A DNA stretch of 26,010 bases from NCBI GenBank assembly GCA_039793475.1, contig JBAMLP010000040.1:1-26010 (forward strand), in the 5' to 3' direction. This DNA comes from Candidatus Micrarchaeales archaeon. GTDB lineage: Archaea > Micrarchaeota > Micrarchaeia > Anstonellales > J096. The position numbers and the translations under genes are program-made. The notes beneath the pieces were generated by a model. It ran no database searches. It worked only from the letters and a program-made list of their open reading frames with translations, and was not told the DNA's origin. This document shows positions 3,693 to 20,132 of the stretch, piece by piece. Numbering within the stretch: the first letter of the stretch is position 1; every line of letters begins with the position of its first letter.

Positions 3693-4064
3693 CTAAACTA
3701 CTTTCAGCCCCTTTATCCCCTCATACTCATTCCTGTTTTTTGTGAGAAGAAATGCATCATTCCTAATGCAGATTGCTGCGTTTATTATCGCCCGCGTAGA
3801 GGTCCTAACCCCTTCTTTCATTCCTTCATGGTAGAATTTTGACGCAAGCTCCGCGCTCTGGCTGTCGAAACCAAGAATCTCTAGGTTCTTCATAAACCTA
3901 AGCACCGGAGCAATTGATTTCACACTCGAGAGAACCTCGAACATCACAACACTCGTGGTCACAATCTCTTCCTTTTCAATGTAGTATCTAAGCTTTTCTA
4001 TTGTCGCCCTCCTTCCCTCAAGAAAGTCTATTATTATGTCTGAGTCAAGGCAGATTTTCACCAT
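3693..4064 (-). CDS. vapC: PIN-domain VapC toxin
   Basis: LDSDIIID, TTSVVMFEV and LLTKN PIN motifs. ATG 4064 overlaps the antitoxin stop (TGATG) with RBS GAGGTGG upstream; the track start is 4073. Confidence 0.88.
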   Translation of the reverse strand: MVKICLDSDIIIDFLEGRRATIEKLRYYIEKEEIVTTSVVMFEVLSSVKSIAPVLRFMKNLEILGFDSQSAELASKFYHEGMKEGVRTSTRAIINAAICIRNDAFLLTKNRNEYEGIKGLKVV

Positions 4065-4276
4065 CACATCCACCTCTTCAGTGTAATCAGCTGCTTCTCA
4101 TCAACATCCCTAGGCCCGAGAATGCCAGCGAACTCCATTATGCTTGAGTCTGTTCTCTTCTCCTGCATGATGGAAACAAGGTATTCTATCGCCTCGGAAA
4201 AACTCATCCCCTTTGATTTTTTCAGCTTGTCCAGCTTCTCGTAAACATCATCCCTAATAGTAATTACACGCACCAT
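4064..4276 (-). CDS. vapB: VapB-type antitoxin (DUF217-like)
   Basis: ITIRDDVYEKLDKLKKSKGMSFSEAIEYL pattern; small gene directly upstream of and coupled to the PIN gene. Confidence 0.8.
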   Translation of the reverse strand: MVRVITIRDDVYEKLDKLKKSKGMSFSEAIEYLVSIMQEKRTDSSIMEFAGILGPRDVDEKQLITLKRWM

Positions 4277-4288
4277 TCTGACCGCCTC

Positions 4289-4319: not shown

Positions 4320-4396
4320 TTTTCGTCTGGGATTAGGGGAAGTAGAGTATGTTGGTTGGAAAATGTGCATCTCCCTTACCGTCGGCAAACAGAAGG

Positions 4397-4434
4397 TATA
4401 TAAAACTATTTTTTGCTTTTTCCGTTGAGGTGAC
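4397..4434 (+). promoter_or_regulatory. ftsZ promoter TATA box and RBS
   Basis: TATATAAAA at 4397-4405 and GAGGTGA at 4428-4434, four nt before ATG 4439. Confidence 0.6.
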
Positions 4435-4438
4435 CAGG

Positions 4439-5512
4439 ATGGATAGTTTGATAAAAGACGTATTAAACGCCTCCTCGCAGGCAGGGGCGAAGGAGGAAGA
4501 GGATGTGGGAAACGAGCACATAAAAATCGTAACCTGCGGGGTTGGAGGAGCAGGGAACAACACCATAAACCGGCTTGTGAAAGCGGGCGTGAAAGGCACA
4601 GACCTTGTGGCAGTAAACACAGACCAACAGCACCTGAACATAGTGCATGAGAGGGCAAAGAAGGTGCTCATAGGAAAGAGCATCACAAAGGGCCTTGGTG
4701 CAGGCGGATACCCGGATATTGGTGAAAAGGCCGCAGAAGTGGACAGGCACCTAATCGAGAAGGAGCTCGAGGGCTCGCACCTTGTTTTCATATGCGCTGG
4801 AATGGGTGGAGGAACAGGTGGCGGAGCAGCACCGACAGTTGCAGAAATAGCAAAGGAGCAGGGCGCAATTACCGTTGCCATGGTTACATACCCGTTCGCT
4901 CTGGAAAGGGCGAGAAGGAAGAAGGCAGACGAGAGCATCACGAAGCTGAGAAAGCACTGCGATTCGGTTATAATTTTGGACAACAACAGATTGGTTCAGC
5001 TTGTCCCGAACCTTCCGATGACAGAGGCGTTTGCTGTCGCGGATGAAATTTTGGCGCGTGCGATTTCAGGTCTGGTGTGGACCATCACCCAGCCGTCCCT
5101 CATCAACATAGACTTCGCGGATGTAAGAAGCATAATGAAGGGAGGCGGAGTCGGCTTCATAGCTGTGGGAGAAGGAAAGGGAGCAGACAGGGTGAAGTCC
5201 GCGGCTGAAAGCGTCTTGAAGAACAGGCTGCTGGATGTAAGCTTTGAGGGTTCGAAGGGCGCGCTCATCCACATCTCCGGAGGAAGCGACCTCACTCTCG
5301 GCGACGCCATAAAGGCAGGAGAGATTATTACAGAACAGATGGACGCTGAGGCGAACGTAAAATGGGGTGCCAGGATAATGAACAACTACGAGGGCAAGCT
5401 TGAGATTGTCGCGATAGTCACTGGTGTGAGGGGAGCAAGCATTCTCGGCACATTCCCACAGGAGGAAGCGCTACCAGCACCAGCTTACTCAGGCGACCTT
5501 GACCTCCTCTAA
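4439..5512 (+). CDS. ftsZ: Cell division GTPase FtsZ, copy A (FtsZ2-like)
   Basis: GVGGAGNNTIN, AVNTD, GLGAGG, GMGGGTGGG, DNNRL and T7 loop PSLINIDFADVRSIMKGGG. Start moved to ATG 4439 because of the RBS; the track start is 4349. Confidence 0.96.
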   Translation: MDSLIKDVLNASSQAGAKEEEDVGNEHIKIVTCGVGGAGNNTINRLVKAGVKGTDLVAVNTDQQHLNIVHERAKKVLIGKSITKGLGAGGYPDIGEKAAEVDRHLIEKELEGSHLVFICAGMGGGTGGGAAPTVAEIAKEQGAITVAMVTYPFALERARRKKADESITKLRKHCDSVIILDNNRLVQLVPNLPMTEAFAVADEILARAISGLVWTITQPSLINIDFADVRSIMKGGGVGFIAVGEGKGADRVKSAAESVLKNRLLDVSFEGSKGALIHISGGSDLTLGDAIKAGEIITEQMDAEANVKWGARIMNNYEGKLEIVAIVTGVRGASILGTFPQEEALPAPAYSGDLDLL

Positions 5513-5540
5513 CTTTTTTCTTTTTTATTTTTTGTTTTTT
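5513..5540 (+). terminator. Oligo-T tract, putative archaeal intrinsic terminator between the ftsZ copies
   Basis: CTTTTTTCTTTTTTATTTTTTGTTTTTT immediately follows the ftsZ-A stop codon. Confidence 0.5.
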
Positions 5541-5573
5541 ATTGTCTGGGCAGTTGATGGTTCGGTGGTTGGA

Positions 5574-6584
5574 ATGACTGGAAACAACGCAGATGTTCGG
5601 ATTGCGGTAATCGGAGTTGGCGGTGCTGGAAGCAATGCGGTGAACAGGTTGAAGAAAAACAGAATAGAAAGCGCCCGGACGATTGCTGTAAACACGGACG
5701 CAAGGCATCTTAAGTTCATACATTCTGATGAAAAAATTCTCATAGGAAAAAGCATCACAAAGGGCCTTGGCGCTGGCGGAATGCCAGAGGTTGCAAAGAA
5801 ATGCGCAGAAGCTGACAGAAAACTTTTGAGCGAGAGAATAGGGGAAATGGACATTGTCTTCATTTCCGCAGGAATGGGTGGAGGAACAGGAACCGGCGCG
5901 GCGCCCATCATCGCAGATATTGCAAAGGAGCAGGGCGCAATTACCGTTGCCATGGTCACATACCCGTTTGCTATTGAGAGGTCGAGGATAAAAACAGCGC
6001 GGATGGGAATACAAAAACTCATCAATGTTTGCGACACCGTTGTTGTAATAGACAACAATAGAATGGTGCAGTATGTTCCAAACCTTCCGCTGGATAAAGC
6101 GTTCGAGCTTGCGGATAGCATAGTGGGAAGGGCTGTGAAGGCAATTGCAGATTCCATAGTTCTTCCATCCATGCTCAATATGGATTTTGCGGATTTCAAG
6201 GCAGTGATGGCGAAAAAAGGGCTTTCCATGATAAGCTTGGGCGAAGGAAAGGGAGCAAACAAGATTGAAGAGGCGGTGAAGAACACTCTCGAACACCCCC
6301 TTTTGGAAGTTGATTATGAGGATGCAAACGGAGCGCTGGTGCATGTTGAGGGAAGTCCGAAGCTCACTCTCGCTGAGGCAATAAGGGCAGGGGAGCTGAT
6401 GACAGTTAGTTTCTCGCCTGATTCTGAGGTGAAGCTCGGAGCCCGTGTAAACCCATCCATGAGTGAAGATGCGGTTGTTTTGACCGCGATAATAACAGGA
6501 GTGAAATCCCCACACATAATAGGAATGAGCGAGCCTAAACTGGCTACAACCGAACAGAAGGCCGAAATGTTTGCACTGGCATAG
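5574..6584 (+). CDS. ftsZ: Cell division GTPase FtsZ, copy B (divergent FtsZ2-like)
   Basis: GVGGAGSNAVN, AVNTD, GLGAGG, GGGTGTG and T7 loop PSMLNMDFAD. ATG 5574 is preceded by GGTGG; the track extension from 5499 merely translates the T-tract. Confidence 0.95.
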   Translation: MTGNNADVRIAVIGVGGAGSNAVNRLKKNRIESARTIAVNTDARHLKFIHSDEKILIGKSITKGLGAGGMPEVAKKCAEADRKLLSERIGEMDIVFISAGMGGGTGTGAAPIIADIAKEQGAITVAMVTYPFAIERSRIKTARMGIQKLINVCDTVVVIDNNRMVQYVPNLPLDKAFELADSIVGRAVKAIADSIVLPSMLNMDFADFKAVMAKKGLSMISLGEGKGANKIEEAVKNTLEHPLLEVDYEDANGALVHVEGSPKLTLAEAIRAGELMTVSFSPDSEVKLGARVNPSMSEDAVVLTAIITGVKSPHIIGMSEPKLATTEQKAEMFALA

Positions 6585-6617: not shown

Positions 6618-9524
6618 ATGTTCTCGTTCAACCCATTCTACCTTGTGCTATGGATATTCCTGGCAAACTTTATCCCTGGCGTGCTGCTCGCTCTCGGGCT
6701 TCTCAAGGAAAAGAAGCTTCTTTTGGTAGAAAAAATAGGGTTTGGTTTTGCGCTTGGGATAGTAATAGCCCCATTCATACTATTCCTGGCGCAACTGGCT
6801 GGGATAGCATATAGTTTCAACCTTGCATTCACCACCACCCTTCTCTTCTACGCACTCTCCATAGCAGTTTTTTATTATAAAAAAGGTTTTGAGGGGTTGG
6901 GCGCAATAGGGAAAGAGGTAGGCGAACACAAATGGGTTTTCTTTGGCATTGTTCTCCTGGTTCTCCTGGCATTTTGGATACGGCTCCAGAGCTACGGGCC
7001 TATTTTTCAGGAGCTGGACCCGTACTACTATGCATATGAGCCATACCTCTATTTAACGAAAGGTTTTGCTCCTCTGAATGATGGGACCGCGTGGTGGCCA
7101 GTTCATGAGGTAAACCACAGGGTGAAACCTGTGCTTGCGTTCATGGAAGCGGAATGGTACTCATTCTATACATGGGGAGGAAGCGCGGACAATTATCTTC
7201 TTTCTGCAGTGTGCAGCATCTATCCGCCGATTGCCGCTGCCCTTGCAGTATTCTTTCTTTACATCTTTCTCTCTTCAGAATACAAAAGGGAGTACGCGCT
7301 CCTCGCCGCCTTCCTCGCCTCCTTCATCCCCGTATTCCTCCTAAAAACAATGGCTGGAGAATTTGAGATCCAGCCATACGCATTCTTCTCACTTTCATTC
7401 TTTTTTGCCTCCTATGCGCTAGCAATAAAAAACAAGGATTTGGTGTTTGCAGCCATCTCTGCCCTCGCGCTGGTTGCAGTATACCTCGGCTCATCTTCAA
7501 TAGTTGTTGCTCTCTCCGCACTCATCCTCTTCATTCCTCTCCACGCCCTCCACCTCTTCATAAAGGGTGAAAAGGATTTCATGCCCGCAATCATAAACTG
7601 GATTGTTCTTGCTGCTCTTGTTTTTGCATCTATCCTGAACTCCACCTATGGAAGCGGAAAATTTGTTTTTAATATTGGCGGCAACTCGAGCTATGCACTT
7701 TTTGGAGTAGTTGCGTTTATGACAGGTTTGCTGTACTTTGAAAAAACATATTCACCTGACAAGTCAAAGATAATAAACTATGCAGGAATTGCGATGGCCA
7801 TCCTTGTTATTGCATTTTTCTTAACCCCATTCGGAGATATTGTAAAAAATATCGCCTCAAACGCCCTCCAAGTTGCTCAGTACACTCTCCCTCTTCACAG
7901 GACAATTCAGGAGCAGGGCCTTGCTGGAAGGGATTTTTATGGCTCCATAGGTTTTATAGGAAAAACATTTTCAGAACAGGATATTCTTTATGGATTTTTC
8001 GCAATCTTCACCTCTCTCATCAATACCCTCTATCATATAGGAGTTGGAATTGCCAACACGATATTCGAATCCTCTCTTGTTTATGAAGATAAGGATGTGA
8101 GCTTCCTGATGTTCTACATATTCCTTGTTGTTGTTACTTCTGCATACGCGCTTTACAGAAAATTTGTAAAAGGGGAGGAAAGTTTGATAGTTCTTTTCCT
8201 TGCGATAGTTTTTCCTGTCTCGCTCGTTGGCATAATAAAAGCAAAGTACACAATATACATGGGCTATTTTCTTGCCATGTGCCTTGCAATAATTCTTGGA
8301 GAATCCGAGCGAATCATCTCTGGTTTTGCAAAGGACGAAAACTCTAAGAAGAGAATTTTCCATGGGCTTTTGGCTTTCGGCCTGTTGGTTGTTTTGTTTG
8401 AAGGATTCTTGGACCCTGTTTCCTATGCAGGGCCTTTGCTCTTCAATTCTTATAAAGTAAGGTTTCAGGACAATCCCCTTGCTCTCCAATCAAAGATGTC
8501 AACCCTTTGCTCCCTTGGCTTGACTGAGGCGTGCTCTGCTTCCCAGGACCCGGTCGCCTATTCAAACAAGGGCATAAACAAGCAGTTTGATTATTCTCTA
8601 TGCGTTTACTCTCTCATTTCAAATCCCCAATCCCCATCCTCTTCAGACCAGCTTGCCGCAAGCGTAAGATGCCAGAGAATTGCTTCCTACTGGATAGATT
8701 CAATGGAATGGCTGCGGTACAACACTCCTGAAGGTTCAAGAGTGATAAGCTGGTGGGACTACGGCCACTGGGAAAACTATTTCGGGCTAAGGAATGCGGT
8801 GATAAGAAATGAGCACACAGACTCTAACATGATTGGCGATGTGGCGCATGATTTCATAATGGACAGCGAGCCCGCTTTGATAGAAACGATGAAAAAATAC
8901 GGTGCGCAGTACGCGCTTTTCGATTCAGAGCTTATTTTTACTGGTGGGCATTTCGGTGGAAAATTCGGAGCCCTCAACTACCTTGCATGCGCCGCAGCGA
9001 ACCTCACGGATGTTTCAAAATGGCCCGGTTCAAGCCTGTGCGAGTTTGAAAACACATGGGAGCAGGTATATGTTTCAAGTCAGGAATGTACAGTTTCTTC
9101 AATAACTGGAAAAAATGGAAGGGTTGCGTATATTATTGATGCCGTTCAAACTTCCTCTGGCCTTCAAACCTCCCTAAAACCCTTCTACTGCCTCTCAACC
9201 ACAAAACTTGCTGATGGAAAAGAGGTCCCGGCTACATACTACTTAGATAGAAAAAACGAGGCAGGAGAGCTTTTGCTTAATAAAGCATTCCTTCTCTATG
9301 ATGGAAAAACATCCGTAGGAGGGTACGATGTTTACACCCTTCTCTACACAAAAGATAAGGTATGGCTTGAAAATGGAACGGTTGTGGACGGATGGAGCGA
9401 CAGGAAAGGAAGGTTCTACGATTCAAATTTATACAAAGGTTTTGTGCTCAAGGAGCTTGATGGGTTTGAGCTTGTGTATACCACGCCCGATGAGGCAGTG
9501 AAAATATATAAAATAAAGGAATAA
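6618..9524 (+). CDS. aglB: Oligosaccharyltransferase AglB (STT3 family)
   Basis: Polytopic N-terminal region with ELDPYY, GEFE and TIQE motifs; soluble C-terminal domain with SWWDYGHW and RYNTPEGSRV. Confidence 0.94.
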   Translation: MFSFNPFYLVLWIFLANFIPGVLLALGLLKEKKLLLVEKIGFGFALGIVIAPFILFLAQLAGIAYSFNLAFTTTLLFYALSIAVFYYKKGFEGLGAIGKEVGEHKWVFFGIVLLVLLAFWIRLQSYGPIFQELDPYYYAYEPYLYLTKGFAPLNDGTAWWPVHEVNHRVKPVLAFMEAEWYSFYTWGGSADNYLLSAVCSIYPPIAAALAVFFLYIFLSSEYKREYALLAAFLASFIPVFLLKTMAGEFEIQPYAFFSLSFFFASYALAIKNKDLVFAAISALALVAVYLGSSSIVVALSALILFIPLHALHLFIKGEKDFMPAIINWIVLAALVFASILNSTYGSGKFVFNIGGNSSYALFGVVAFMTGLLYFEKTYSPDKSKIINYAGIAMAILVIAFFLTPFGDIVKNIASNALQVAQYTLPLHRTIQEQGLAGRDFYGSIGFIGKTFSEQDILYGFFAIFTSLINTLYHIGVGIANTIFESSLVYEDKDVSFLMFYIFLVVVTSAYALYRKFVKGEESLIVLFLAIVFPVSLVGIIKAKYTIYMGYFLAMCLAIILGESERIISGFAKDENSKKRIFHGLLAFGLLVVLFEGFLDPVSYAGPLLFNSYKVRFQDNPLALQSKMSTLCSLGLTEACSASQDPVAYSNKGINKQFDYSLCVYSLISNPQSPSSSDQLAASVRCQRIASYWIDSMEWLRYNTPEGSRVISWWDYGHWENYFGLRNAVIRNEHTDSNMIGDVAHDFIMDSEPALIETMKKYGAQYALFDSELIFTGGHFGGKFGALNYLACAAANLTDVSKWPGSSLCEFENTWEQVYVSSQECTVSSITGKNGRVAYIIDAVQTSSGLQTSLKPFYCLSTTKLADGKEVPATYYLDRKNEAGELLLNKAFLLYDGKTSVGGYDVYTLLYTKDKVWLENGTVVDGWSDRKGRFYDSNLYKGFVLKELDGFELVYTTPDEAVKIYKIKE

Positions 9525-9542: not shown

Positions 9543-11168
9543 TCATCGCTCTGCCTCTTCAGTCGGTGTCGCGGCAGGAGCGCCGGATGTTTCTTCCTCA
9601 ACTTTAGTAAACTCATCTTTCACAGCCAAAACTTCCACTTTGAATTCTCCGCTCGCTTCATTGTATTCGCTTATCCTTCCTTTTATAACTTTCCCGGCAG
9701 GTACGAGTACTGTTCCATCCTCACGGGTAAGTTGCTCCCATGTTTTGAATTCAAACACCTGCCCGCTCGCCGCTAAATAAGGGAACAAAACTTTCTTTGT
9801 ATTCGCCCAGGAAAATACACCAACATTTTTCCTGGTTAGTGTTTTGGTCTCCCAGTTTTCCTTTCCTGCAATTTTTTTGGCTGTTTCCTTATCCGTTTCC
9901 CAAGTACGATCTATCTCACTTAGGTTTCTTTTTACCATCTTCTCTGCACTCAGCCATCCAGCATCAGTCTCAACATAGAAGTTTTCCATTAGTTCAGTTA
10001 CTCCTTTTTCCGGTTTTAAATCCTTTTCAATTTCCCTTGTAAGCGTTAAAACCTGCCCAACAGCTTCCTTTTCTTCCCCTCGTCTCTCTTCTTCCTCTCG
10101 TGCTCCGCCACCCTCTCCTGTTCCCGGAAGCTCTCCCTTTTCCTCTTTAGGTGCAAGCCCAAGCAATCCGTAAATTCCATTTTTTGTGTCAATTCCAAAA
10201 AAACCATCAGGAGTTACTCCAGCAGCCCTCTGCATTCTCTCAACAGCCGCTCTTGTGTCATCACCATATTTCCCATCTACCTTTATCTTCGGACCGCGCA
10301 CGACTCCTTTTTCAACGAGCGTGTTGTAAAGATGCTGAAGGATTGCAACCTGCTCACCATACCACAATCCGCTTGCCCCTCCTATCCAGTTTTTTCCTTT
10401 GTACACCCCCGAAAGCCCATAGTCAAGCGTAATCAAATCCAAAAGCTCCCTTGGTCCCATAGCCATTATTTCTGGGCTCAGTTCAATGTCCGGCAGTTTC
10501 ACGGATGGCTTTGGTGTTGGTTTTGCCCGTATAGGTACCTCCTCCTTTTTCTCAACCATTTCCGGCGCGATTCCGGGTGCTGGGATTGGTTCTCCTATAT
10601 ATTCTTTGAGTTTTTCTGGTTCCTTTTTTCCAATGCGTAATTCCTTAATATACCCTTTCTCAACATCACTTTTGTACAAAATGTACCTAAGCACCGGCCC
10701 CTTCATTGTTTTTCTTATTTCTACTCTTGAAGACCATCCACCCAAATATTTTGCCAACTTTTTATTCGCCCAATCATAAAAACCAATAGGGTCAAGCTCA
10801 GTAAGATTTGCTAATGCTACAGCGTATATCGATGGTGGCATCGCCGATTGCATACGGTGGAGTCTTGCTTTCCAAAAATTTCTCCATTCCTCAGTAACAG
10901 GGGCTTCAATCATGACCGCATCATCCCTGACCTTTACGACTTTTCCATGAAAATCATACCTACCCAACAGACGACCTCCCAGATCACTAGCAACCGTGAC
11001 CTCATCTCCTATTTTTAATTTATTATACTTTTCCATAATAACTTCTTTTTCTTCTTTTTTCTCTTCTTTTTTCTGTTGTTTTTGTTGTTCTGCTTTAGGG
11101 GGCTCAATGTATACTTTCGTTTTATCCGCAGGCATAGGTTCCACAAATGGTTGCTTTTGTTTTGCCAT
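9543..11168 (-). CDS. Multi-domain protein with a central peptidoglycan-binding (PG_binding_1-like) domain
   Basis: VAILQHLY..KVDGKYGDDTRAAVERMQRAAGVTPDGFFGIDT is a textbook PGBD pattern, flanked by Pro/Glu/Lys-rich linkers. The N-terminal region has a possible SH3/KOW-like barrel (LKIGDEVTV..GKVVKV). No signal peptide. Confidence 0.8.
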   Translation of the reverse strand: MAKQKQPFVEPMPADKTKVYIEPPKAEQQKQQKKEEKKEEKEVIMEKYNKLKIGDEVTVASDLGGRLLGRYDFHGKVVKVRDDAVMIEAPVTEEWRNFWKARLHRMQSAMPPSIYAVALANLTELDPIGFYDWANKKLAKYLGGWSSRVEIRKTMKGPVLRYILYKSDVEKGYIKELRIGKKEPEKLKEYIGEPIPAPGIAPEMVEKKEEVPIRAKPTPKPSVKLPDIELSPEIMAMGPRELLDLITLDYGLSGVYKGKNWIGGASGLWYGEQVAILQHLYNTLVEKGVVRGPKIKVDGKYGDDTRAAVERMQRAAGVTPDGFFGIDTKNGIYGLLGLAPKEEKGELPGTGEGGGAREEEERRGEEKEAVGQVLTLTREIEKDLKPEKGVTELMENFYVETDAGWLSAEKMVKRNLSEIDRTWETDKETAKKIAGKENWETKTLTRKNVGVFSWANTKKVLFPYLAASGQVFEFKTWEQLTREDGTVLVPAGKVIKGRISEYNEASGEFKVEVLAVKDEFTKVEEETSGAPAATPTEEAER

Positions 11169-11172
11169 ACCA

Positions 11173-11208
11173 TCACCGTTAGTTATTCTGTTATAAACTC
11201 TTTATAAA
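11173..11208 (-). promoter_or_regulatory. TATA box and RBS for the PGBD gene
   Basis: TTTATAAA at 11208..11201, a second TTTATAA at 11197..11191, and GGTGA at 11177..11173 upstream of ATG 11168. Confidence 0.5.
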
Positions 11209-11234
11209 TATATCCCCGGGTCGTTGATGTTTAA

Positions 11235-12254
11235 TCAAACCGGTTTCTGATAGTACGACCTTTCTGCATACCTTTTATATTCAGATGAAAGATGAATGTA
11301 AACACCCGCGCCATCCTTTATTTTATCGATTATCTCTGTTGCACTTTTTCTGGGAAGAGCAGGACATCCGTGGCTTCTTCCTATTGGTTGCTCGTTCTGC
11401 GCCATTTCTTCTGAAACATAGTCTGCTCCATGTATTACTATATTCCTTTCCCTTGCGTTGCTGTTGTACCCTATCTCCAGACCATCGAGCCGTAAAGAGT
11501 AGCCATTTTTGCCAGTGTATGTTTCTGCCGTAACAAACAGCCCTATCGAACTCTTGTGCGAACCAATATTGTTTGAAACACTTGTAACATTTGCTAAACC
11601 AGAACCTTTTCCATGGGCGACAAGTTCTGTCCTTTCGAGTTTTCCGGTTTTCATGTTAAAAAGAAAAAACCTTTTTTCATAGGAAGGTTTGGAATAATCT
11701 ATGATCACGAAGTAATCTGTGTTTTTTATTTTTCCCGCGTTCACACCGTTTCTGTATGCTATCATTCCGGCGCTGAATGCCTCATAGCTCAACCCCTCTC
11801 TCTCCGCGCCGCTCGAAACCCACATTTCTCCCAGCTCCATTTCTGTTTTCTTTGGTTTCTCTTGAAGAATTGAAGGTTCGAATTTTTTAGGAGGTTCAAA
11901 TTTTTGAGCTGCGATTGGTGTGGGCATTTTCTCTATTCTCAGAAGCTCAATGACCCCTCTCTTTGTTTCAATCCCAAAAACACCATCAATCTTTATTCTC
12001 ATCTTGGTTTTTTCATTTACAGCACTTTGAATTGCCCTGACTGCCTTTTCTGTTTTTTCATCATAAACGCTGGTCAGTTCTATTTTTTCGCCTTCAACGA
12101 GCCCTCTTTCAACAAGGTAATTGTATATCATTTTAACAATGAGTACGTCCTTTCCTTCCTGCACCCCTCTTTTTCCCCCAACCCACCTATCTTTACTAAC
12201 ATCCAATTCGCCTACAAGTCCCTCTGCGGAAAAAGGCAATTTTACAGCTGGCAT
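11235..12254 (-). CDS. Peptidoglycan-binding domain fused to a YkuD_2 (murein L,D-transpeptidase catalytic) domain
   Basis: C-terminal IIDYSKPSYEKRF, VAHGKGSG, SSIGLFVTAETYTGKNGYSLRLDGLE, NSNARERNIVIHGADYV and GRSHGCPA follow the YkuD_2 family pattern with catalytic His and Cys intact. N-terminal PGBD (DGVFGIETK). ATG 12254 preferred over TTG 12272. Confidence 0.9.
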   Translation of the reverse strand: MPAVKLPFSAEGLVGELDVSKDRWVGGKRGVQEGKDVLIVKMIYNYLVERGLVEGEKIELTSVYDEKTEKAVRAIQSAVNEKTKMRIKIDGVFGIETKRGVIELLRIEKMPTPIAAQKFEPPKKFEPSILQEKPKKTEMELGEMWVSSGAEREGLSYEAFSAGMIAYRNGVNAGKIKNTDYFVIIDYSKPSYEKRFFLFNMKTGKLERTELVAHGKGSGLANVTSVSNNIGSHKSSIGLFVTAETYTGKNGYSLRLDGLEIGYNSNARERNIVIHGADYVSEEMAQNEQPIGRSHGCPALPRKSATEIIDKIKDGAGVYIHLSSEYKRYAERSYYQKPV

Positions 12255-12284
12255 GAGTAGTTTATGATGCAAAAAGAATAAAAA

Positions 12285-13298
12285 CTAAACTTTCATCGCC
12301 CTTACTTTTACTCCCGCAGCTTTCAACAATTCAAGCGCATCATCTGCGAGAGGGTACTGCTCATTATACACAACCTCAACAATTCCAGCATTTATTATCA
12401 TTCTCGAGCAATACAGGCATGGAGAATGGGTTGTGTAAATTACTCCGCCCTTTACGCTTACTCCATGGTATGCTGCCTGCACAATGGCATTCTCTTCTGC
12501 ATGCGCGCAAAAACACGATTCCAGATTCTTCCCGCTTTCGCTGAATGAATTGCATCTGGGGCATCCTCCCTCATAGCAGTTTTTCACCCCTCTTGGCGTT
12601 CCGTTATACCCGGTTGAAATGACCCTCTTGTCCTTCACAATAACCGCGCCTATTTTTCTTTTTATGCAGTTTGCGCGGGAAGAAACGACCTTCGCGATAT
12701 TCATAAAATACTCATCCCACACAGGCCTTTCAAATTTAAATTTCACAAGAACTTTCTGCAAAATTCCGTCCACGCTCTCCTGCAACCTTTCCAAAGTGGA
12801 ATCATTCAAAATCGTAAAATCAGCCATTTTTGCGGTTTTTTTCAACTGCTGTTTATACCCCTCCTTACTTTCTTCCTCCATCTTCTCCAATTTCAGAAAC
12901 TCCTCAAAAGTTTGCGGGTCCTCCTCCCTCCCTCTCGCCTTTATCCTTTCAAACCTCACCTCAGCTGGTGCGTTTATGTAAAGCAGATAAAAATTCTGGA
13001 GTTTTTTCAGCTCCTCAACTTCGCCAGGATTTCTTATAGAATCCACAACATAATTTTTCCCCCTTTCCATTTTTTTTATGGCCATGCTGGCAAGCGTTCC
13101 CTCCCCAAATTTTTTTCTCATTTCATTCCCTTTTTTTATCAGATTTTCCCTTGTGAGCGGCTTTCCTTCCTTTACCACCTCTTCTCTTATCACATCTGAA
13201 AGGGAGAGGTAGTAAAAACCTTTTTTCTTCAGATACTCCGCAACAGTTGTTTTTCCGGCGCAGTTTTCGCCCGTTAGCCCAAGGAATATGTTTGACAT
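12285..13298 (-). CDS. P-loop nucleoside monophosphate kinase-like domain fused to dCMP deaminase
   Basis: N-terminal GLTGENCAGKTT (Walker A), DSIRNPGE and R-F-E-R lid. C-terminal WDEYFM, GYNGTP, HAEENA and PCLYC zinc motifs of dCMP deaminase (ComEB-like). Confidence 0.9.
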   Translation of the reverse strand: MSNIFLGLTGENCAGKTTVAEYLKKKGFYYLSLSDVIREEVVKEGKPLTRENLIKKGNEMRKKFGEGTLASMAIKKMERGKNYVVDSIRNPGEVEELKKLQNFYLLYINAPAEVRFERIKARGREEDPQTFEEFLKLEKMEEESKEGYKQQLKKTAKMADFTILNDSTLERLQESVDGILQKVLVKFKFERPVWDEYFMNIAKVVSSRANCIKRKIGAVIVKDKRVISTGYNGTPRGVKNCYEGGCPRCNSFSESGKNLESCFCAHAEENAIVQAAYHGVSVKGGVIYTTHSPCLYCSRMIINAGIVEVVYNEQYPLADDALELLKAAGVKVRAMKV

Positions 13299-13362: not shown

Positions 13363-13752
13363 ATGATAGTAGGGAACAGAGTGAATTCCATAGAAGCAAA
13401 GAGAGGAGAAAGCGAGATAAAGAGATTGGATATAAGGATAGGGTTTAGGGATGTGCGGGAGAGTAAAAACAGCAAGGAGATCCTGGAGATAGATTATGAG
13501 TATGTTGCTGCCTACGGAGAAGACGCCGGGGAAATAAAGATCGGCGGAACGATATTCACGAAGGAGGACGAAAAAACAAAAAAAGCAATCCTTGATGAAT
13601 GGAAAAAAAACAAAAAACTACCGGATGATTACATGGAGGCAGCATTGAATAATGTAAATTTTATGGGCGCCGCGAACGGAACTATAATTGCAAAGGTGCT
13701 TAACACTACGCCGCCCCTACTACCACCAAGGTTGAGGATGCAGAAATCATAG
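13363..13752 (+). CDS. Uncharacterised archaeal protein, possibly SecB-like fold
   Basis: RBS GGGTGAG before the ATG. Beta-strand-rich N-terminal half followed by helices and a C-terminal PPLLPP segment reminiscent of SecB PPL. The CDS is solid; the fold call is tentative. Confidence 0.65.
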   Translation: MIVGNRVNSIEAKRGESEIKRLDIRIGFRDVRESKNSKEILEIDYEYVAAYGEDAGEIKIGGTIFTKEDEKTKKAILDEWKKNKKLPDDYMEAALNNVNFMGAANGTIIAKVLNTTPPLLPPRLRMQKS

Positions 13753-14808
13753 TAGGGCTGCTTTATTTTTTAACAAAAGATAGAGTGCAAGGTATTCTGG
13801 CACTTCGACAACCGCGCCCCTTTCAGCTTTTATTCCCTCCCCTATTTTCACATCAACATTTTCATTCACTCTAATCTTTACCCTCTCCTCTCCAAACGCA
13901 ATCGCGTCCTCTATTTCCATTTCGTAATTTTTTGTTGGAAGAACAACAAGCCCTGTTGAGCCATGGAGGGAGCCAGGCAGGCGTATTAATTTAGATGTAT
14001 CCTGCGTCACTCCAACATCCACATTTATGCTTTTTACAGGAAGCTCTTTTGCAACATCTTCCAGCCTCTCAACAACCTTTGGTAGCCTTGTTTTACTCCA
14101 TATGCCCTGTTTTATCCCCTCAACAAAACGCTTCTTTTCCTTATCTTCATTAAAAATTCTGCTTATTTTTTCCGGTTCTGTTTCAAGTGTTTTTATAACC
14201 ATTCTCGCAAACTTTCCCCTATACCCGCCTTCGCTCGGTTTAGGCCCAAATATTTTTTTGCTCTTTTTATCCACATCAAAAAATTTTGTATAGTCCAAAC
14301 CGATTCCGGCAAGATAGGAAGCAATCTCCCTTCTGCTTTCCCTTCCCAGCATTCTGAACTTTTCATAAACATGGACATGAAATCCCCTGTTCCCAGAAAA
14401 AACAAAAGCAATCTTGTTCCTGTCTACGCCGAACTCCGGGATCAAAAATTCCTCTACCAGCCTAACTGCATCCTCCCTAACTTTTTCAAAAATTTCCTTG
14501 TCGAAAATCTCCATCTCGGCGTCGAGGTCGAACACAAGGTCGCTTCCCTTCCATCCCTTATTGTTCATCGGCTGGGCACCTGGCCTTTCGTAGTATGCTG
14601 TTGAGCGGGAAACATAAAGTGGGGCATTTTCCCTCAGAAATTCATTCAGTTTTTCAGAGTTTTCAAAAGCAAGATGCCTCGCTTCTATCTTTCTGTCCCA
14701 ATCGCCGTACCCAAACTCCCTTTCCTCAACTGCATCCGGTTTGAGCTCATGCCTAGCATAGTAGCTCCTGAACCTACTCTTTATCCAACTCTTTTCCCTT
14801 TCGTCCAT
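13747..14808 (-). CDS. priS: DNA primase small (catalytic) subunit
   Basis: REFG, SDLVFDLDA (DxD), FSGNRGFHVHV and VTQDTSKLIRLPGSLHG motifs of archaeo-eukaryotic primase. Confidence 0.95.
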   Translation of the reverse strand: MDEREKSWIKSRFRSYYARHELKPDAVEEREFGYGDWDRKIEARHLAFENSEKLNEFLRENAPLYVSRSTAYYERPGAQPMNNKGWKGSDLVFDLDAEMEIFDKEIFEKVREDAVRLVEEFLIPEFGVDRNKIAFVFSGNRGFHVHVYEKFRMLGRESRREIASYLAGIGLDYTKFFDVDKKSKKIFGPKPSEGGYRGKFARMVIKTLETEPEKISRIFNEDKEKKRFVEGIKQGIWSKTRLPKVVERLEDVAKELPVKSINVDVGVTQDTSKLIRLPGSLHGSTGLVVLPTKNYEMEIEDAIAFGEERVKIRVNENVDVKIGEGIKAERGAVVEVPEYLALYLLLKNKAALL

Positions 14809-15712
14809 ACCCCTTCCCCCAGCTCAGAGGGTTTTTTATCCCGCATTCAGCAACGCAAAGCCCGTATGCCCTCATTGTTTCGCAGGATGGCATGATGTAC
14901 CCGCGCTTTTTCGCATGCTCAATGTAATATCTTGTTTTTTTCTCATTGAAATCCGGAAGGTTTGAAAAGAGGGAGAGTATTGCTTCTGTGTCAACCCGTC
15001 TGTTCACAAAATAAACAGCCAAACTCCACCTCGCATGATGGCCGAGGTTTTCGTGTTTGTACACCTGGTCAAGGAGGGCCTTTACGCACGGTGGGTGCTC
15101 TCCCTTTATGGCTGTTGTTGTTTTCCTGTCTATTTTTGGCAGGAATTCCCTCAGCTGCTCTCCAGCTTTTTTTATCCTCTCATCCTCCACCCTTCCTCTC
15201 GGAAGCTTTTCAAGATGCTTTTTCACTCCCTCCTCCACTATCCTTAAGAATTCCCTTTCCTTTATCTTTACAAACCCGCTATCCATCTCCCTGTTCACAA
15301 GAGAGTACGCCACATCATCAGGAGCAAATTCAAGATAAACTGCAATTGGCAGAAAAGTTTCCCCATTTTTTTCAACCCGTTCTATTCCAAGCTCTCGTCC
15401 TATTCTTTCTGCCTCCTCCTTACTCATTTTTTCATAAGTGCTTTTCGCCCATACAATCGCGTACTTGTTCGTGAGATAGGGGTTATTTATGCTCGCGAGA
15501 ATCATCCTGCTGGTTGCATATATGAGAATCTCTTCGAATTTCTCCCATGCGCTTGTGGCAGTTCCCGCCATTATCCTGCCATTTCTAAGCGCATGCTTCA
15601 ACCTTTCCAAAGCCTTCTCTATTATTTCATCGCTTATTTCCGGCTTTCTCTCATCCATTATTTTTTTTGCGTCATTGCTGAACGGGAATTTCGCAGCAAA
15701 CTCAAGATCCAT
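14774..15712 (-). CDS. priL: DNA primase large subunit
   Basis: AKFPF N-terminus, HPPCV, LGHHARW..AVY, FNEKKTRYYIEH and PSC..GLC..EC..NPL (four Fe-S Cys). Overlaps priS by 35 nt. Confidence 0.93.
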   Translation of the reverse strand: MDLEFAAKFPFSNDAKKIMDERKPEISDEIIEKALERLKHALRNGRIMAGTATSAWEKFEEILIYATSRMILASINNPYLTNKYAIVWAKSTYEKMSKEEAERIGRELGIERVEKNGETFLPIAVYLEFAPDDVAYSLVNREMDSGFVKIKEREFLRIVEEGVKKHLEKLPRGRVEDERIKKAGEQLREFLPKIDRKTTTAIKGEHPPCVKALLDQVYKHENLGHHARWSLAVYFVNRRVDTEAILSLFSNLPDFNEKKTRYYIEHAKKRGYIMPSCETMRAYGLCVAECGIKNPLSWGKGYGRKGKELDKE

Positions 15713-16021: not shown

Positions 16022-16273
16022 ATGTACGACATTGTTTTCTCAAAAAAAGCCGAGCGCGACCTAGATTTTCTTTCGCAAAAGATTAAAGAAAGAGTAGTCG
16101 CAGTGCTTGAAAGAATAAGAATAGACCCTTATCGCTATTTGAGGAAACTTTCCAAGTTAGGTGTTTACCGTATTAGGACAGGAGATTACAGGATTATAAT
16201 TGATGTTAACGAAAGCGACAAGGTTCTGTTCGTATTGAAAGTAGGCCATAGAAAGAAAATATATAAATGGTAG
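16022..16273 (+). CDS. relE: RelE/StbE-family toxin
   Basis: YDIVFSKKAERDL, YRIRTGDYRII and VLKVGHRKKIY are typical RelE/ParE superfamily motifs. Confidence 0.92.
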   Translation: MYDIVFSKKAERDLDFLSQKIKERVVAVLERIRIDPYRYLRKLSKLGVYRIRTGDYRIIIDVNESDKVLFVLKVGHRKKIYKW

Positions 16274-17199: not shown

Positions 17200-18032
17200 C
17201 TAGCTATCAGCACCCCTAATGCTGTTAAAATAAATGCTGAAGGGCACATGCCTGGTTGTTGTTGAGGTTGGGGTTCCTGTTCCTCCTCTTCCGGTGGCTG
17301 TTCTACCGGAGGCTTCTCTTCCGCAGGCGGCTGCTCCTCTTCCGGAGGGGGTATGTTTATCTCTTGCTCCTCTTCAGGGGCAGGAGGAATGCATCCTTCG
17401 AGTAATGCCTGTGCATCTGCTTTCACTTGGGTTGCGAGTATGTTTGCTTTTGGAGCTTCACATATTGCCATCAGCCTTTCCATCTCATCTATTTTGTTTT
17501 TTATCTCTGTTGCGTTACATCCCTTTTCTTCAATCTGAGAAACCAATCCCTCAATTTCCGCGATGTTTTTTTTCAGGATTATCTCGTTTGTTGTTTCCCA
17601 GTGGTCCACCCTTATTGTAATCTCTTTTCTTACAGTTAGCCCTCGATTCTCAGGGTCATCGTACCGGAGTTCGATCGCGGGCGTTTCTACTGTTCCGTTT
17701 CCCTTTCCTCCGTAGTAAAAATCAAATTGAACCTGCTTATTCTCAAAATCTCCTTCCTTAACGACAAGCAGAAGCCCTCTATCTACCCATCCGCCGGTTC
17801 TCATATCATAGGTTGAGTAGTATACAGGCACATCCTCATTATACTCATTACTAAGCCCAAGTTTTATCATAAACTCAAATGGTCCATTATTTGATGGATG
17901 ACAGTTCATCGGTTGCATGGAAATAACAGGCTTAACTTCTTTTACAGTTATTTTCATTTTTGACTCCAAGGTTGCTGTAAAAACCATCCCCAACAATCCA
18001 AACAACACAAACAGTGCAATAATTTTTCTCAT
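17187..18032 (-). CDS. Secreted surface protein with Pro/Glu-rich stalk and Cys-containing C-terminal anchor
   Basis: Signal peptide MRKIIALFVLFGLLGMVFT, beta-rich domain, coiled-coil-like segment, PPPEEEQPPAEEKPPVEQPPEEEEQ linker, then GMCPSAFILTALGVLIARWEY. Confidence 0.8.
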   Translation of the reverse strand: MRKIIALFVLFGLLGMVFTATLESKMKITVKEVKPVISMQPMNCHPSNNGPFEFMIKLGLSNEYNEDVPVYYSTYDMRTGGWVDRGLLLVVKEGDFENKQVQFDFYYGGKGNGTVETPAIELRYDDPENRGLTVRKEITIRVDHWETTNEIILKKNIAEIEGLVSQIEEKGCNATEIKNKIDEMERLMAICEAPKANILATQVKADAQALLEGCIPPAPEEEQEINIPPPEEEQPPAEEKPPVEQPPEEEEQEPQPQQQPGMCPSAFILTALGVLIARWEY

Positions 18033-18093
18033 TCTCTCCCCCTATTTCTTTGAATACAAAACATTTTTAAGCACTTACTTTCATCTCCCAACG

Positions 18094-19212
18094 ATGGATC
18101 CGTTCTTTTGTTTGCCTATTATTGTGCTCATCTCTGTTTTTGTGATTGCATTTGGTTTTATGCTTGCAGGCATTCTGAACAACCCCCAGTTTGATGCAAA
18201 AGTAAAGGAGGAGATGAGAGTAACCATAACAGGAATTCTGTTGCTTATATTCGTTGTTGGAATATTCACTTCAATAAATGCATTCATAAAAACATACACT
18301 GGTTATGAAGATGTTGGTACCCTCTCTGGCTTTGTGCTGGAAAAATTCGAGAACAAAACCAAATTTCTGTTTGTTGAATACTCAACTGTGCTTACAAGGA
18401 TTGGGCAGTATGCTGGCCTCAGCTACCATGTTTCCATTCCTATTGCTGTCTATCAAGTGAATATTGGAGAGGCTCCTTTCACCGGGCTTGGTTCTGTTTC
18501 CTCCTCTCTCCATGGAATAGGGAATGTTCTTTCCATATTCTATTTCGCTTTGGTTTCGCTGAAAATTGTCATTCCGTTCGCAGCATGGATAAGCAAGGAC
18601 TACCTTCTTCCAATTGCGTTTGCATTTAGGTTGATGCCCGGAACAAGGAAAATAGGCGCAACGCTTATTGCGCTGGCTCTTTCTGCAGCCATAGCTCTGC
18701 CAGCGGCTGTTGTTGTAGTCGGAGACCTTCTGGATTCTGCGGTTTCCATGCCCCATTACGCCGCCATCGAGATGAAGAGCATGCATTCCAGAATGCCAGA
18801 CCCGATGAGAATGAGCGTAATTCCGCCGATCGTCTGCTCCCCTGCGTTTCAGGCAATAGCCCAACCTACAGACCAGGTTTATGACTGGGCAATATGCACG
18901 CCGCTCTCTTGGGTTGGTGTTCCTTACCCTATTTGCGAACTAGTTGTTGACTTTGCTTACAATATTGTATTCACCATAGCCGCAATACTCCAGTTTTATC
19001 AGATAATCGGATTAACATTCTGGGTGGATACGCTTGCGGAAGTTTTCGATCCACTCATGGATTTTTTCATTCCTGCAGTAGTTGAGCTGAGCACAACACT
19101 TACAATATTCCTTGTTTCAATCACTCTCATAGTTGTTAGCGCCTACCGCTCCATTTCCGTTGCGCTTGGAGGGGAGTTCTTCATGTATGGATTTTCAAGG
19201 TTTACGGGGTGA
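18094..19212 (+). CDS. Polytopic membrane protein, paralog 1 of 6 (CedA/VirB6-like)
   Basis: Shared motifs FMLAGILNNPQFDAKVKEE, LLPIAFAFRLMPGTRKIGATLIA..LP and C-terminal SVALGGE. ATG 18094 chosen because the track start 17917 overlaps the opposite-strand gene. Confidence 0.75.
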   Translation: MDPFFCLPIIVLISVFVIAFGFMLAGILNNPQFDAKVKEEMRVTITGILLLIFVVGIFTSINAFIKTYTGYEDVGTLSGFVLEKFENKTKFLFVEYSTVLTRIGQYAGLSYHVSIPIAVYQVNIGEAPFTGLGSVSSSLHGIGNVLSIFYFALVSLKIVIPFAAWISKDYLLPIAFAFRLMPGTRKIGATLIALALSAAIALPAAVVVVGDLLDSAVSMPHYAAIEMKSMHSRMPDPMRMSVIPPIVCSPAFQAIAQPTDQVYDWAICTPLSWVGVPYPICELVVDFAYNIVFTIAAILQFYQIIGLTFWVDTLAEVFDPLMDFFIPAVVELSTTLTIFLVSITLIVVSAYRSISVALGGEFFMYGFSRFTG

Positions 19213-19217
19213 TTTTT

Positions 19218-20132
19218 ATGAAAAAAGCATTTCTCCTGCTGATGTTTTTTTCCTTTCTCTTTGCGCAGAATGTGTGCGACCCCACAACAGGAATAGACGA
19301 TTTCTGGTGGCAGGTCATCACTATTCTCGCTGGTGTTTCTGCCCTTTTGATTGCAGTAGTTTACATCATCGGTTCAGCCTTCCATTTTCCAAACTACATT
19401 GTGCTCGCAAAGGATGAGCTCTCCCACCTCATCCTAACCCTCTTCATAGTGTTGCTCATGCAGGGAATATTCGTTGGAAGCTGTGGAATTTTTTCCTCCT
19501 ACCTCTCTGCGTATGCAGGGGTTGAGAACCCCATAGAGTACTCAAAAACCTTCTTTTCAAAAATGCAGAACGAGCTCCAGAATATAATAAAAACCCTGTA
19601 CAGCGACTATTTTGACTATCGCATCCAGTCCTCTGTTTTCATGGGAAGGTATGACATAGGTGGTAGCGGAGTGATGCTCTACACGAACTACTGGATGGAT
19701 GTTGTTGCCTCGCAGATTGAAACCATCATAAACCTTCTTTCCATTCTACTTCTCTCAGCAAAGATGCAGGCAATAATGTTCGAGCTCGCTGTGGATGTGA
19801 TTGTTCCGTGGAGCATACCGTTTGCAGTAATTGCGCGTCTTATTCCGCAGGCAAGGGAAGCAGGCAACATCCTCCTTGCGATCGTATTCTCATTCTACAT
19901 TCTTCTTCCATTCTCCTATTCAATTTTCGCAGCGAGCTATGATAAAATTTCAATTCCCTGCTCATCCAAAATCGCCGCAGACCCGTTCTTCGGTGGCTGT
20001 GAAGCAAACGGTTTCATCGCATTCGCAAAGTTTTTCCCATACACAATACTTTTCCCGAACATAGCGCTTGCAATTGTCATAAGCTCCATAGATGCAATAA
20101 GAAGAACGCTCTCGTTTGGTGGTGTACCATGA
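19218..20132 (+). CDS. Polytopic membrane protein, paralog 2 of 6
   Basis: Signal peptide MKKAFLLLMFFSFLFA; YIIGSAF..LAKDEL; IPFAVIARLIPQAREAGNILLA..LP. RBS GGGGTGA precedes ATG 19218 (GTG 19209 is an alternative). Confidence 0.75.
   Translation: MKKAFLLLMFFSFLFAQNVCDPTTGIDDFWWQVITILAGVSALLIAVVYIIGSAFHFPNYIVLAKDELSHLILTLFIVLLMQGIFVGSCGIFSSYLSAYAGVENPIEYSKTFFSKMQNELQNIIKTLYSDYFDYRIQSSVFMGRYDIGGSGVMLYTNYWMDVVASQIETIINLLSILLLSAKMQAIMFELAVDVIVPWSIPFAVIARLIPQAREAGNILLAIVFSFYILLPFSYSIFAASYDKISIPCSSKIAADPFFGGCEANGFIAFAKFFPYTILFPNIALAIVISSIDAIRRTLSFGGVP

Follow-up and report, generated by a model that had tools for sequence, protein, structure and literature searches.

A putative murein-directed chimera of a bacterial-type YkuD_2 domain and a Micrarchaeia-type peptidoglycan-binding module in an Anstonellales archaeon

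Introduction

Murein-targeting enzymes of DPANN and other archaea are already published (PMC8204110, PMC9723730, PMC12352652). Modular peptidoglycan (PG) hydrolases occur in ~5% of archaeal genomes, Micrarchaeota included, where the surveyed architectures are LysM+SLT and PG_binding_3+GH108, and bactericidal activity has been demonstrated for the PG hydrolases of Halogranum (Strock et al. 2025, PLoS Biol, PMC12352652). Among DPANN archaea, Woese- and Pacearchaeota encode lytic murein transglycosylases, for which a bacterial host or prey has been suggested (Castelle 2021, PMC8204110; Vigneron 2022, PMC9723730). Here we examine a 26,010-nucleotide stretch of an archaeal genome (contig JBAMLP010000040.1 of assembly GCA_039793475.1; hereafter the window), in which gene A encodes a YkuD_2 domain preceded by a module resembling the peptidoglycan-binding domain (PGBD) PG_binding_1, and the adjacent gene B encodes a PGBD protein. 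The original prediction had described the two as a PG-targeting gene pair with which the archaeon may bind and remodel or lyse bacterial walls, implying a bacterial host or prey. The murein idea is not new for archaea; gene A is a YkuD_2 example in the Anstonellales (Micrarchaeota).

Gene A resembles Woldo (M23 and two PG_binding_1 domains) and Danwoldo of Halogranum salarium in that a bacterial-type catalytic domain and a wall-binding domain are found together in an archaeon. It shares with the hydrolases of Strock et al. more generally a patchy distribution, domain shuffling, bacterial ancestry and, as is usual there, no recognised signal. It differs from that set in its catalytic domain, a YkuD_2 domain of the Cys/His L,D-transpeptidase fold; neither YkuD nor YkuD_2 was found in the text or supplementary files searched of PMC12352652. 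The binding module of A appears to stem from a paralogue family of the archaeal lineage rather than to have been co-transferred. Moreover, Woldo and Danwoldo carry Tat signals, whereas A has no signal and its activity is predicted. A literature search found no paper combining DPANN, peptidoglycan and YkuD.

Bacterial YkuD_2 proteins (e.g. Lpg1697, PMC10117105) are 42-58% identical to A in the catalytic domain and share with it the motif GRS(H/W)GCPA(L/V) and all invariant residues; unlike A, they are ~210-280 amino acids long, begin with a signal or lipoprotein-like sequence and have no PGBD. The L,D-transpeptidase-like effectors Tlde1/Tae5 of the type VI secretion system (T6SS) are antibacterial (bioRxiv 10.1101/2020.02.18.954545). 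Like A they have a YkuD-related Cys/His fold, in their case used against murein stem peptides with L,D-carboxypeptidase and exchange activity. They differ in belonging to another clade (DUF2778), in T6SS delivery and in having an immunity protein; the only Pfam matches of A are to YkuD_2, YkuD and PG_binding_1, with no DUF2778, and its neighbours are housekeeping genes. The DPANN transglycosylases resemble A as bacterial-type, murein-directed enzymes in DPANN that invite the same ecological inference. They are very large extracellular GH23 glycosidases from other phyla, whereas A is predicted to be a small, signal-less enzyme of the peptidase type.

Phage endolysins of the KZ144/EL188 type likewise combine an N-terminal PG_binding_1 domain with a C-terminal catalytic domain and have no signal. 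Matches to PHROG endolysin families are confined to the PGBD modules and, unlike phage endolysins, A has neither a phage context nor a holin and is flanked by syntenic core genes. We rejected a viral origin: there was one weak match among 50,697 phage records, no viral contig with this PGBD type, and no fold match in BFVD.

Results

Gene A carries an intact YkuD_2 domain

Genes A and B are two co-directional open reading frames (ORFs) on the minus strand, with the following features.

11235..12254, minus strand: gene A, 339 amino acids from ATG; PG_binding_1-like module, Pro/Lys-rich linker and YkuD_2 domain
12254, minus strand: ATG start codon of gene A, kept in the homologous leader of L010, a locus of another Anstonellales genome
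11937..12185, minus strand: N-terminal PG_binding_1-like module of A, residues ~24-106
11292..11798, minus strand: YkuD_2 (PF13645) catalytic domain of A, residues 153-321
11430..11432, minus strand: codon of catalytic His275, motif VIHGA
11364..11366, minus strand: codon of catalytic Cys297, motif GRSHGCPAL
9543..11168, minus strand: gene B, 541 amino acids, Lys/Glu-rich, with a central PG_binding_1 domain
10158..10406, minus strand: PG_binding_1 module of B, residues ~255-337

An alternative start of A, a TTG at 12272 upstream, was not conserved in the sequence comparison. The catalytic domain matches YkuD_2 with E=1e-58 and 197.9 bits (Pfam cutoff 27 bits) over profile positions 3-169 of 169, and YkuD (PF03734) matches as well, with 32 bits. 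The original prediction had placed a YkuD_2 domain in 11235-12254, with its His in IHGA (11432..11430) and its Cys in SHGC (11366..11364); the Pfam result agrees, and both codons are exact. The NCBI annotation of the protein reads 'murein L,D-transpeptidase catalytic domain family protein'. Aligned with 32 bacterial homologues, A retains all 28 invariant columns, among them H275, G296 and C297, and 18/18 nearly invariant ones.

The AlphaFold (AF2) model of A has a predicted local distance difference test (pLDDT) score >90 across most of residues ~140-339. Foldseek matched this model to LdtMt2, LdtMt1 and Ldtfm (E 4e-6 to 1e-4, probability 1.0), indicating, at the level of a predicted structure, that the catalytic domain has the YkuD (ErfK/YbiS) fold, as originally proposed. 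Neither A by itself nor a profile of 33 sequences found a match in sequence searches of the PDB, so it is the fold comparison that links A to solved L,D-transpeptidases.

The binding modules of A and B belong to a Micrarchaeia-type paralogue family

Residues 24-105 of A align with residues 261-336 of B at 40% identity (BLASTP, E=9e-15), showing that the two modules are paralogous. The N-terminal region of A is closer still to P0128, a further paralogue (BLASTP, E=6e-17), with which it has in common a distinctive insert, NEKTKMRIKI in A, of the shared form NEKTxMxI. The helices of the A module are predicted at pLDDT 72-84. When residues 1-140 of A were searched with phmmer against 1.84 billion representatives, P0128 came first (E=1.9e-10), followed by the B family, P0129 and P0131, and the best non-self relatives were Micrarchaeia/Anstonellales wherever the source names them. 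A word-indexed homologue search with the N-terminal 139 amino acids gave no match; the relatives above come from the full HMMER search.

Gene B passes the PG_binding_1 (PF01471) cutoff of 23 bits with 34.4 bits and has no other Pfam match; together with the A-B alignment, this bears out the original description of B as a paralogous PGBD protein. Both D-G-x-(F/Y)-G-x-(D/E)-T repeats are intact in the B module and are preceded by the lineage motif YKGKNWIGGA. The module is modelled at pLDDT ~88-90, and its Foldseek matches are the PG-binding domains of SleC, 1lbu (a Streptomyces Zn D,D-peptidase) and KZ144 (probability 0.75-0.99, E 0.06-1). The whole model of B, built from a seven-sequence alignment, is poor (mean pLDDT 58.8) and can be interpreted in the PGBD module alone, and a Foldseek search with it gave no credible PDB match for the N- and C-terminal domains. 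Only seven homologue clusters of B were found among 5.8 billion proteins, and every source-named cluster is Anstonellales. Like B, most other paralogues pass the PG_binding_1 cutoff; P0128 has no Pfam match.

P0150 (L094:8001-15524) is a third PGBD paralogue and the best relative of the A binding module. It is a cluster mate of P0128, and its accessions (MGB9719710.1, MGC8899304.1) lie in the number series of A and B, from which we infer that it is an intragenomic paralogue, from the same series of metagenome-assembled genomes (MAGs). At its locus an AbiEii/AbiEi toxin-antitoxin pair comes first, then P0150, then two large soluble ORFs (1338 and 796 amino acids) for which Pfam gave no match, a context that offers no clue to function.

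The catalytic domain of A is of bacterial origin

Among GTDB species representatives, every one of the top 80 loci for A comes from a bacterium (Acidobacteriota, Bacteroidota, Chlorobiota, Gammaproteobacteria and others). DPANN relatives, which the original prediction proposed to seek by phylogeny, were found for the N-terminus, in Micrarchaeia/Anstonellales, and not among these top loci. All 32 aligned bacterial homologues are short (~210-380 amino acids) and have a hydrophobic N-terminus, read by eye as signal or lipoprotein sequence; A has the PGBD module and the Pro/Lys-rich linker in its place. Pairwise p-distances over the catalytic domain were used for the donor question. The nearest homologue is 58% identical to A, and the median identity over all homologues is 50%; among the bacterial homologues themselves the median is 51%. 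The search for a donor therefore came to nothing: A is as distant from the homologues as they are from each other, and no single bacterial donor can be named.

Together these comparisons show that the catalytic domain is of bacterial origin and that A is a Micrarchaeia PGBD module joined to a bacterial YkuD_2 domain with loss of the signal peptide. In this scheme, a bacterial periplasmic YkuD_2 Cys/His domain would have lost its signal peptide and would have been joined, via the Pro/Lys-rich linker, to a PG_binding_1-type module. The source of the module would be the Micrarchaeia-specific paralogue family that includes B and P0150 in the same genome.

Gene A is resident in an archaeal genome

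A second assembly, L001 (GCA_049970035.1), has the same gene order and is 99.895% identical to the window over 21 kb, with 19 single-nucleotide polymorphisms (SNPs) and one in-frame 3-nt indel. The indel and two adjacent SNPs fall at 10970-10977, in the N-terminal domain of B. Nonsynonymous and synonymous differences number 5 and 1 in A and B together and 6 and 7 in the rest of the shared 21 kb, counts too few to interpret. The 90%-identity cluster of A has members on five contigs, the accession numbers of A and B are consecutive in three MAGs, and at least three deposited MAGs have the A-B pair. In NCBI, near-identical proteins bear the name 'Candidatus Micrarchaeia / Anstonellales archaeon'. 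The composition of A (GC 0.414; GC at third codon positions 0.374, against 0.371 in B; codon-usage correlation 0.74) is inside the range of the other 21 genes, and the composition profile of the window has no break.

Gene A is genuinely archaeal-resident, as seen from its presence in several assemblies, its archaeal-lineage N-terminal domain and its host-like codon usage. A chimeric assembly, against which the original prediction had cautioned, is all but refuted by L001, the recurrence in at least three MAGs and the even composition. The case for an assembly or binning artefact, in which a bacterial fragment was mis-joined into an archaeal contig, would be that the catalytic domain is otherwise exclusively bacterial in the top 80 loci. 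It is extremely unlikely, because the A-B arrangement repeats with SNP-level differences in independent assemblies, a Micrarchaeia-type domain lies inside the same ORF as YkuD_2, the leader of A is common to another Anstonellales genome (L010), and a compositional break is absent.

Gene A lies in a variable slot between conserved genes

The surroundings of A and B comprise the following features.

6618..9524, plus strand: AglB/STT3 oligosaccharyltransferase, conserved downstream neighbour of B
11169..11234, minus strand: upstream region of B, with TTTATAAA at 11201-11208 and GGTGAT at 11172-11177
12255..12284, minus strand: leader of A, 30 nt from the deaminase stop codon to the ATG of A, TAGTTTTTATTCTTTTTGCATCATAAACTACTCATG
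12285..13298, minus strand: kinase/dCMP-deaminase fusion gene, conserved upstream boundary of the variable slot
13747-14808: PriS
14774-15712: PriL

The flanks also hold an ATP-dependent DNA ligase, two FtsZ genes and aIF-2B; with AglB/STT3, PriS and PriL, both sides are archaeal, as originally stated. We compared the window with the relatives L006, L008/L009, L011 and L012, which have ~75-80% DNA identity to it. Their order is PriL, PriS, a 129-aa ORF, kinase/dCMP-deaminase, B, AglB, FtsZ, FtsZ, VapBC and ligase. B directly follows the deaminase gene in L006, L008/L009 and L011, and the L012 contig begins within B; none of these five loci has a YkuD_2 gene. Six related lineages of Anstonellales keep B at this position, and its upstream sequence (TTTATAAA, GGTGAT, ATG) is kept in the window and in all related loci without A. 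Since the relatives have B in place with no YkuD_2 gene, A is an insertion specific to its species-level lineage and B an older resident. The comparison thus indicates that B predates A and that the two were not co-acquired.

L010 reveals a different insertion at the same point. It agrees with L006 at 99% identity as far as the deaminase stop codon and at 97.6% from mid-B onward; between these points, 2.4 kb in L010 (5610-8054) takes the place of 0.6 kb in L006 (7952-8542), exactly at the slot of A. The L010 segment encodes an unrelated 567-aa transmembrane (TM) protein and a new TM-bearing N-terminus for the B orthologue. The leader of A, TAGTTTTTATTCTTTTTGCATCATAAACTACTCATG, is homologous to the leader before this unrelated cassette gene, TAGTTTTTATTTCTTTCTGATCATAAAATATTTATG, and the window-L010 alignment extends to window position 12249, suggesting that different genes occupy the same slot behind a shared leader. 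Gene A would then be one alternative cassette in a recombination-prone slot reaching from the kinase/dCMP-deaminase gene to B. Within the leader, the T-rich TTTTTATT (12277-12284) may be an archaeal TATA element or a terminator; we infer that it is placed about where the TATA box of a leaderless mRNA would lie.

The kinase/deaminase gene combines a nucleotide-kinase-like P-loop with a dCMP/cytidine deaminase domain and scores 172 bits against the NCBIfam model 'anti-phage dCTP deaminase' (NF041025), whose cutoff is 400. We rejected a defence island: the gene is far under this cutoff and its position is kept in the relatives that reach it. That conserved position in Anstonellales relatives suggests that it is probably a housekeeping gene and not a defence gene.

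Other features of the window

Two tandem, slightly overlapping FtsZ paralogues lie at 4349-5512 and 5499-6584 (plus strand), the first of which stands out by its higher GC (0.52) and, at 0.66, by the weakest codon-usage correlation of any gene in the window. Among the core replication and division genes stand toxin-antitoxin genes, namely a VapC PIN domain gene with VapB at 3693-4279 (minus strand) and a ParE-like toxin gene with a small upstream ORF at ~16022-16273 (plus strand). Six consecutive multi-TM ORFs occupy 17917-24904 (plus strand; 431, 307, 572, 340, 362 and 318 amino acids) and have no Pfam match. Several carry Sec-like signal peptides, their Lys+Glu fraction is 0.06-0.10 against ~0.2 elsewhere in the window, and at least the first four recur in relatives by size and position; they may form a membrane complex or a paralogue family. 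The IVYWREL fraction of the 22 ORFs is 0.415, from which the Zeldovich formula puts the growth optimum very roughly at 54 C, and many cytoplasmic proteins of the window are very Lys/Glu-rich; for this sample of only 22 proteins, both fit a moderately thermophilic source.

Discussion

A murein-directed enzyme is the favoured reading

We favour the view that A is a real and probably functional chimeric wall enzyme acting on the murein of bacteria or their debris, and put its probability at roughly 0.5. On this best reading, A would act on the L,D bond of the murein stem peptides of neighbouring bacteria or debris, which is the most economical activity because murein stem peptides are the only known substrates of its catalytic domain. 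From family chemistry, the PGBD module would dock on murein, and Cys297 would attack the carbonyl at the L-centre of residue 3 in a tetrapeptide stem, releasing D-Ala4 and leaving a thioester. Resolution of the thioester by water would amount to L,D-carboxypeptidase or endopeptidase activity, and resolution by an amine to exchange or cross-linking. With neighbouring bacteria or debris as the target, the result would be antagonism or scavenging; there are precedents in the effectors Tlde1/Tae5 and, among archaeal PG hydrolases, in Woldo and Danwoldo.

In Legionella the periplasmic YkuD_2 protein Lpg1697 is needed for survival in water (PMC10117105), and a published phylogeny places YkuD_2 with the YcbB/LdtD clade. 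In the bacterial loci whose neighbours we examined (L014-L093), a YkuD_2 gene adjoins a YcbB/LdtD-like gene (Scaffold, PG_binding_1 and YkuD) in 23 of 80, across several phyla; L002:6001-8398 is an example of the arrangement. This neighbourhood suggests a functional tie of YkuD_2 to 3-3 cross-linking and hints at the native role of the family. E. coli has the ldtD-mepK pair, and by analogy YkuD_2 could trim or cleave L,D-linked structures.

Several observations weigh against this reading, and localisation is its main weakness as far as an attack on bacteria is concerned. Signal peptides and TM segments are missing from both A and B (maximum 19-residue hydropathy 0.88 and 0.85, respectively), whereas orf281, orf307, orf572 and orf340 of the same window have clear Sec-type N-terminal signals, and the signal that exports bacterial YkuD_2 members to the periplasm or wall is not present in A. 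No route by which A would reach bacterial walls is therefore evident from its sequence. Topology hints within the B family are contradictory: P0126 has a TM segment at residue 168, before the PGBD, which would probably place that domain outside the cell, and P0122 has a C-terminal one that would place it inside. A signal is, for comparison, known in only 32% of archaeal modular PG hydrolases and in the other 68% it is not (PMC12352652). The A module scores 19.6 bits with PG_binding_1 over residues 40-97, below the cutoff, and its first D-G repeat is degenerate (TSVYDEKT), the second being intact; B has no recognisable catalytic domain by Pfam or fold comparison. The sole functional data for the YkuD_2 family in the literature searched are genetic (Lpg1697), making the reaction type of A a guess by analogy, and no solved structure of the family was detectable by sequence or profile. 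Both substitutions in A between the two strains, T224I and R332M, are nonsynonymous, so constraint may be weak. Finally, A is limited to one species-level lineage (one 90%-identity cluster), and such narrow spread in a hypervariable slot is more in keeping with an accessory or conflict gene that can be lost than with one that interaction with a host requires.

Consequently, the original prediction stands in part. The Pfam scan returned YkuD_2 for A and PG_binding_1 for B and left the A module under its cutoff; the label of a PG-targeting gene pair claims too much, the two having paralogous modules but not having been co-acquired, and only A having a catalytic domain; and binding or remodelling of bacterial walls is favoured by the intact bacterial-type domain and countered by the absent export signal. 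The further step to a bacterial host is not supported. Anstonellales are described as rich in horizontal gene transfer, metabolically rich, comparatively self-sufficient and possibly less host-dependent (PMC12892359, PMC8561730), which fits the uptake of a bacterial gene and at the same time weakens the inference of a bacterial host.

Alternative explanations

Gene A might instead serve cytoplasmic scavenging, trimming imported murein peptides by L,D-carboxypeptidase activity, in the manner of LdcA in bacterial recycling, and yielding D-Ala, meso-diaminopimelate (mDAP) or Lys from bacterial necromass. Such a role would suit a protein with no signal peptide or TM segment in a window where Sec signals are otherwise easily recognised; some YkuD-fold enzymes are pure L,D-carboxypeptidases (Csd6, Tae5/Tlde1), and Anstonellales are described as being without some amino-acid pathways (PMC12892359). 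We nevertheless consider it unlikely, since a polymer-binding PGBD on a flexible linker would be pointless for soluble peptides and no muropeptide transporter is evident beside gene A. Of the surveyed archaeal PG hydrolases, 68% likewise have no known signal, yet the family includes secreted killers. Improbable to a similar degree is a target other than murein, whereby the PGBD proteins of Micrarchaeia (B, P0150, P0131 and others) would bind an archaeal ligand such as an envelope glycan, an S-layer component or a cytoplasmic partner, and YkuD_2 would have been co-opted for cutting or cross-linking a peptide or protein substrate of archaeal nature, in the cell itself or in an archaeal host. B is ancient in the clade and stands beside aglB and two ftsZ genes, and an N-terminal signal peptide occurs in none of the family members examined. 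The PG_binding_1 fold is also found in non-murein binders, such as the pro-domains of metalloproteinases, and to our knowledge all characterised DPANN hosts are archaeal. Against this explanation, YkuD-fold enzymes are known only to act on L,D bonds of murein stems or of their protein adducts; A retains each residue that is invariant in the bacterial family, which speaks against a switch to another substrate; and B has both D-G-x-x-G-x-x-T repeats, a hallmark of PG-binding modules, in intact form.

That A is a neutral passenger, a recently shuffled cassette with no current function and in decay, is quite unlikely. It would be compatible with the presence of A in a single 90%-identity cluster, in a slot with cassette turnover, and with both between-strain differences altering an amino acid. 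But selection cannot be inferred from just two SNPs, at least three MAGs have the full-length ORF intact, 28/28 invariant residues are kept, the codon usage matches the host, and a nearest homologue of only 58% identity implies long residence or divergence during which the active site was kept. Very unlikely, in turn, is a bolder proposal, namely that Anstonellales have long-standing murein-walled bacterial hosts or prey, or an undescribed murein-like envelope polymer of their own. The lineage-specific, signal-less PG_binding_1 family would then have been long kept, with B fixed beside aglB and ftsZ, and effector-like genes, among them the YkuD_2 fusion, would have been swapped into the slot before B. 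Should the modules indeed bind murein in this setting, Anstonellales would provide the first case of bacterial hosts or prey in a DPANN group, reached by an export or contact-delivery route.

Implications

To return to the favoured murein-directed enzyme, our finding alone does not show a bacterial host for a DPANN archaeon. Its structure makes A a clear case of domain shuffling across the domains of life, in which an archaeal-lineage targeting module and a bacterial catalytic module were joined and the export signal was lost. For the YkuD_2 family, an assay of A or of a bacterial homologue would fill a biochemical gap. With its place beside a conserved PGBD protein, the variable slot is a definite site at which to survey Micrarchaeota for genes of interaction or conflict. 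If A proves to be active on murein, the YkuD/L,D-transpeptidase fold would join glycosidases, amidases and M23 peptidases among the anti-murein enzymes of archaea, and the phenomenon would reach the Anstonellales (Micrarchaeota).

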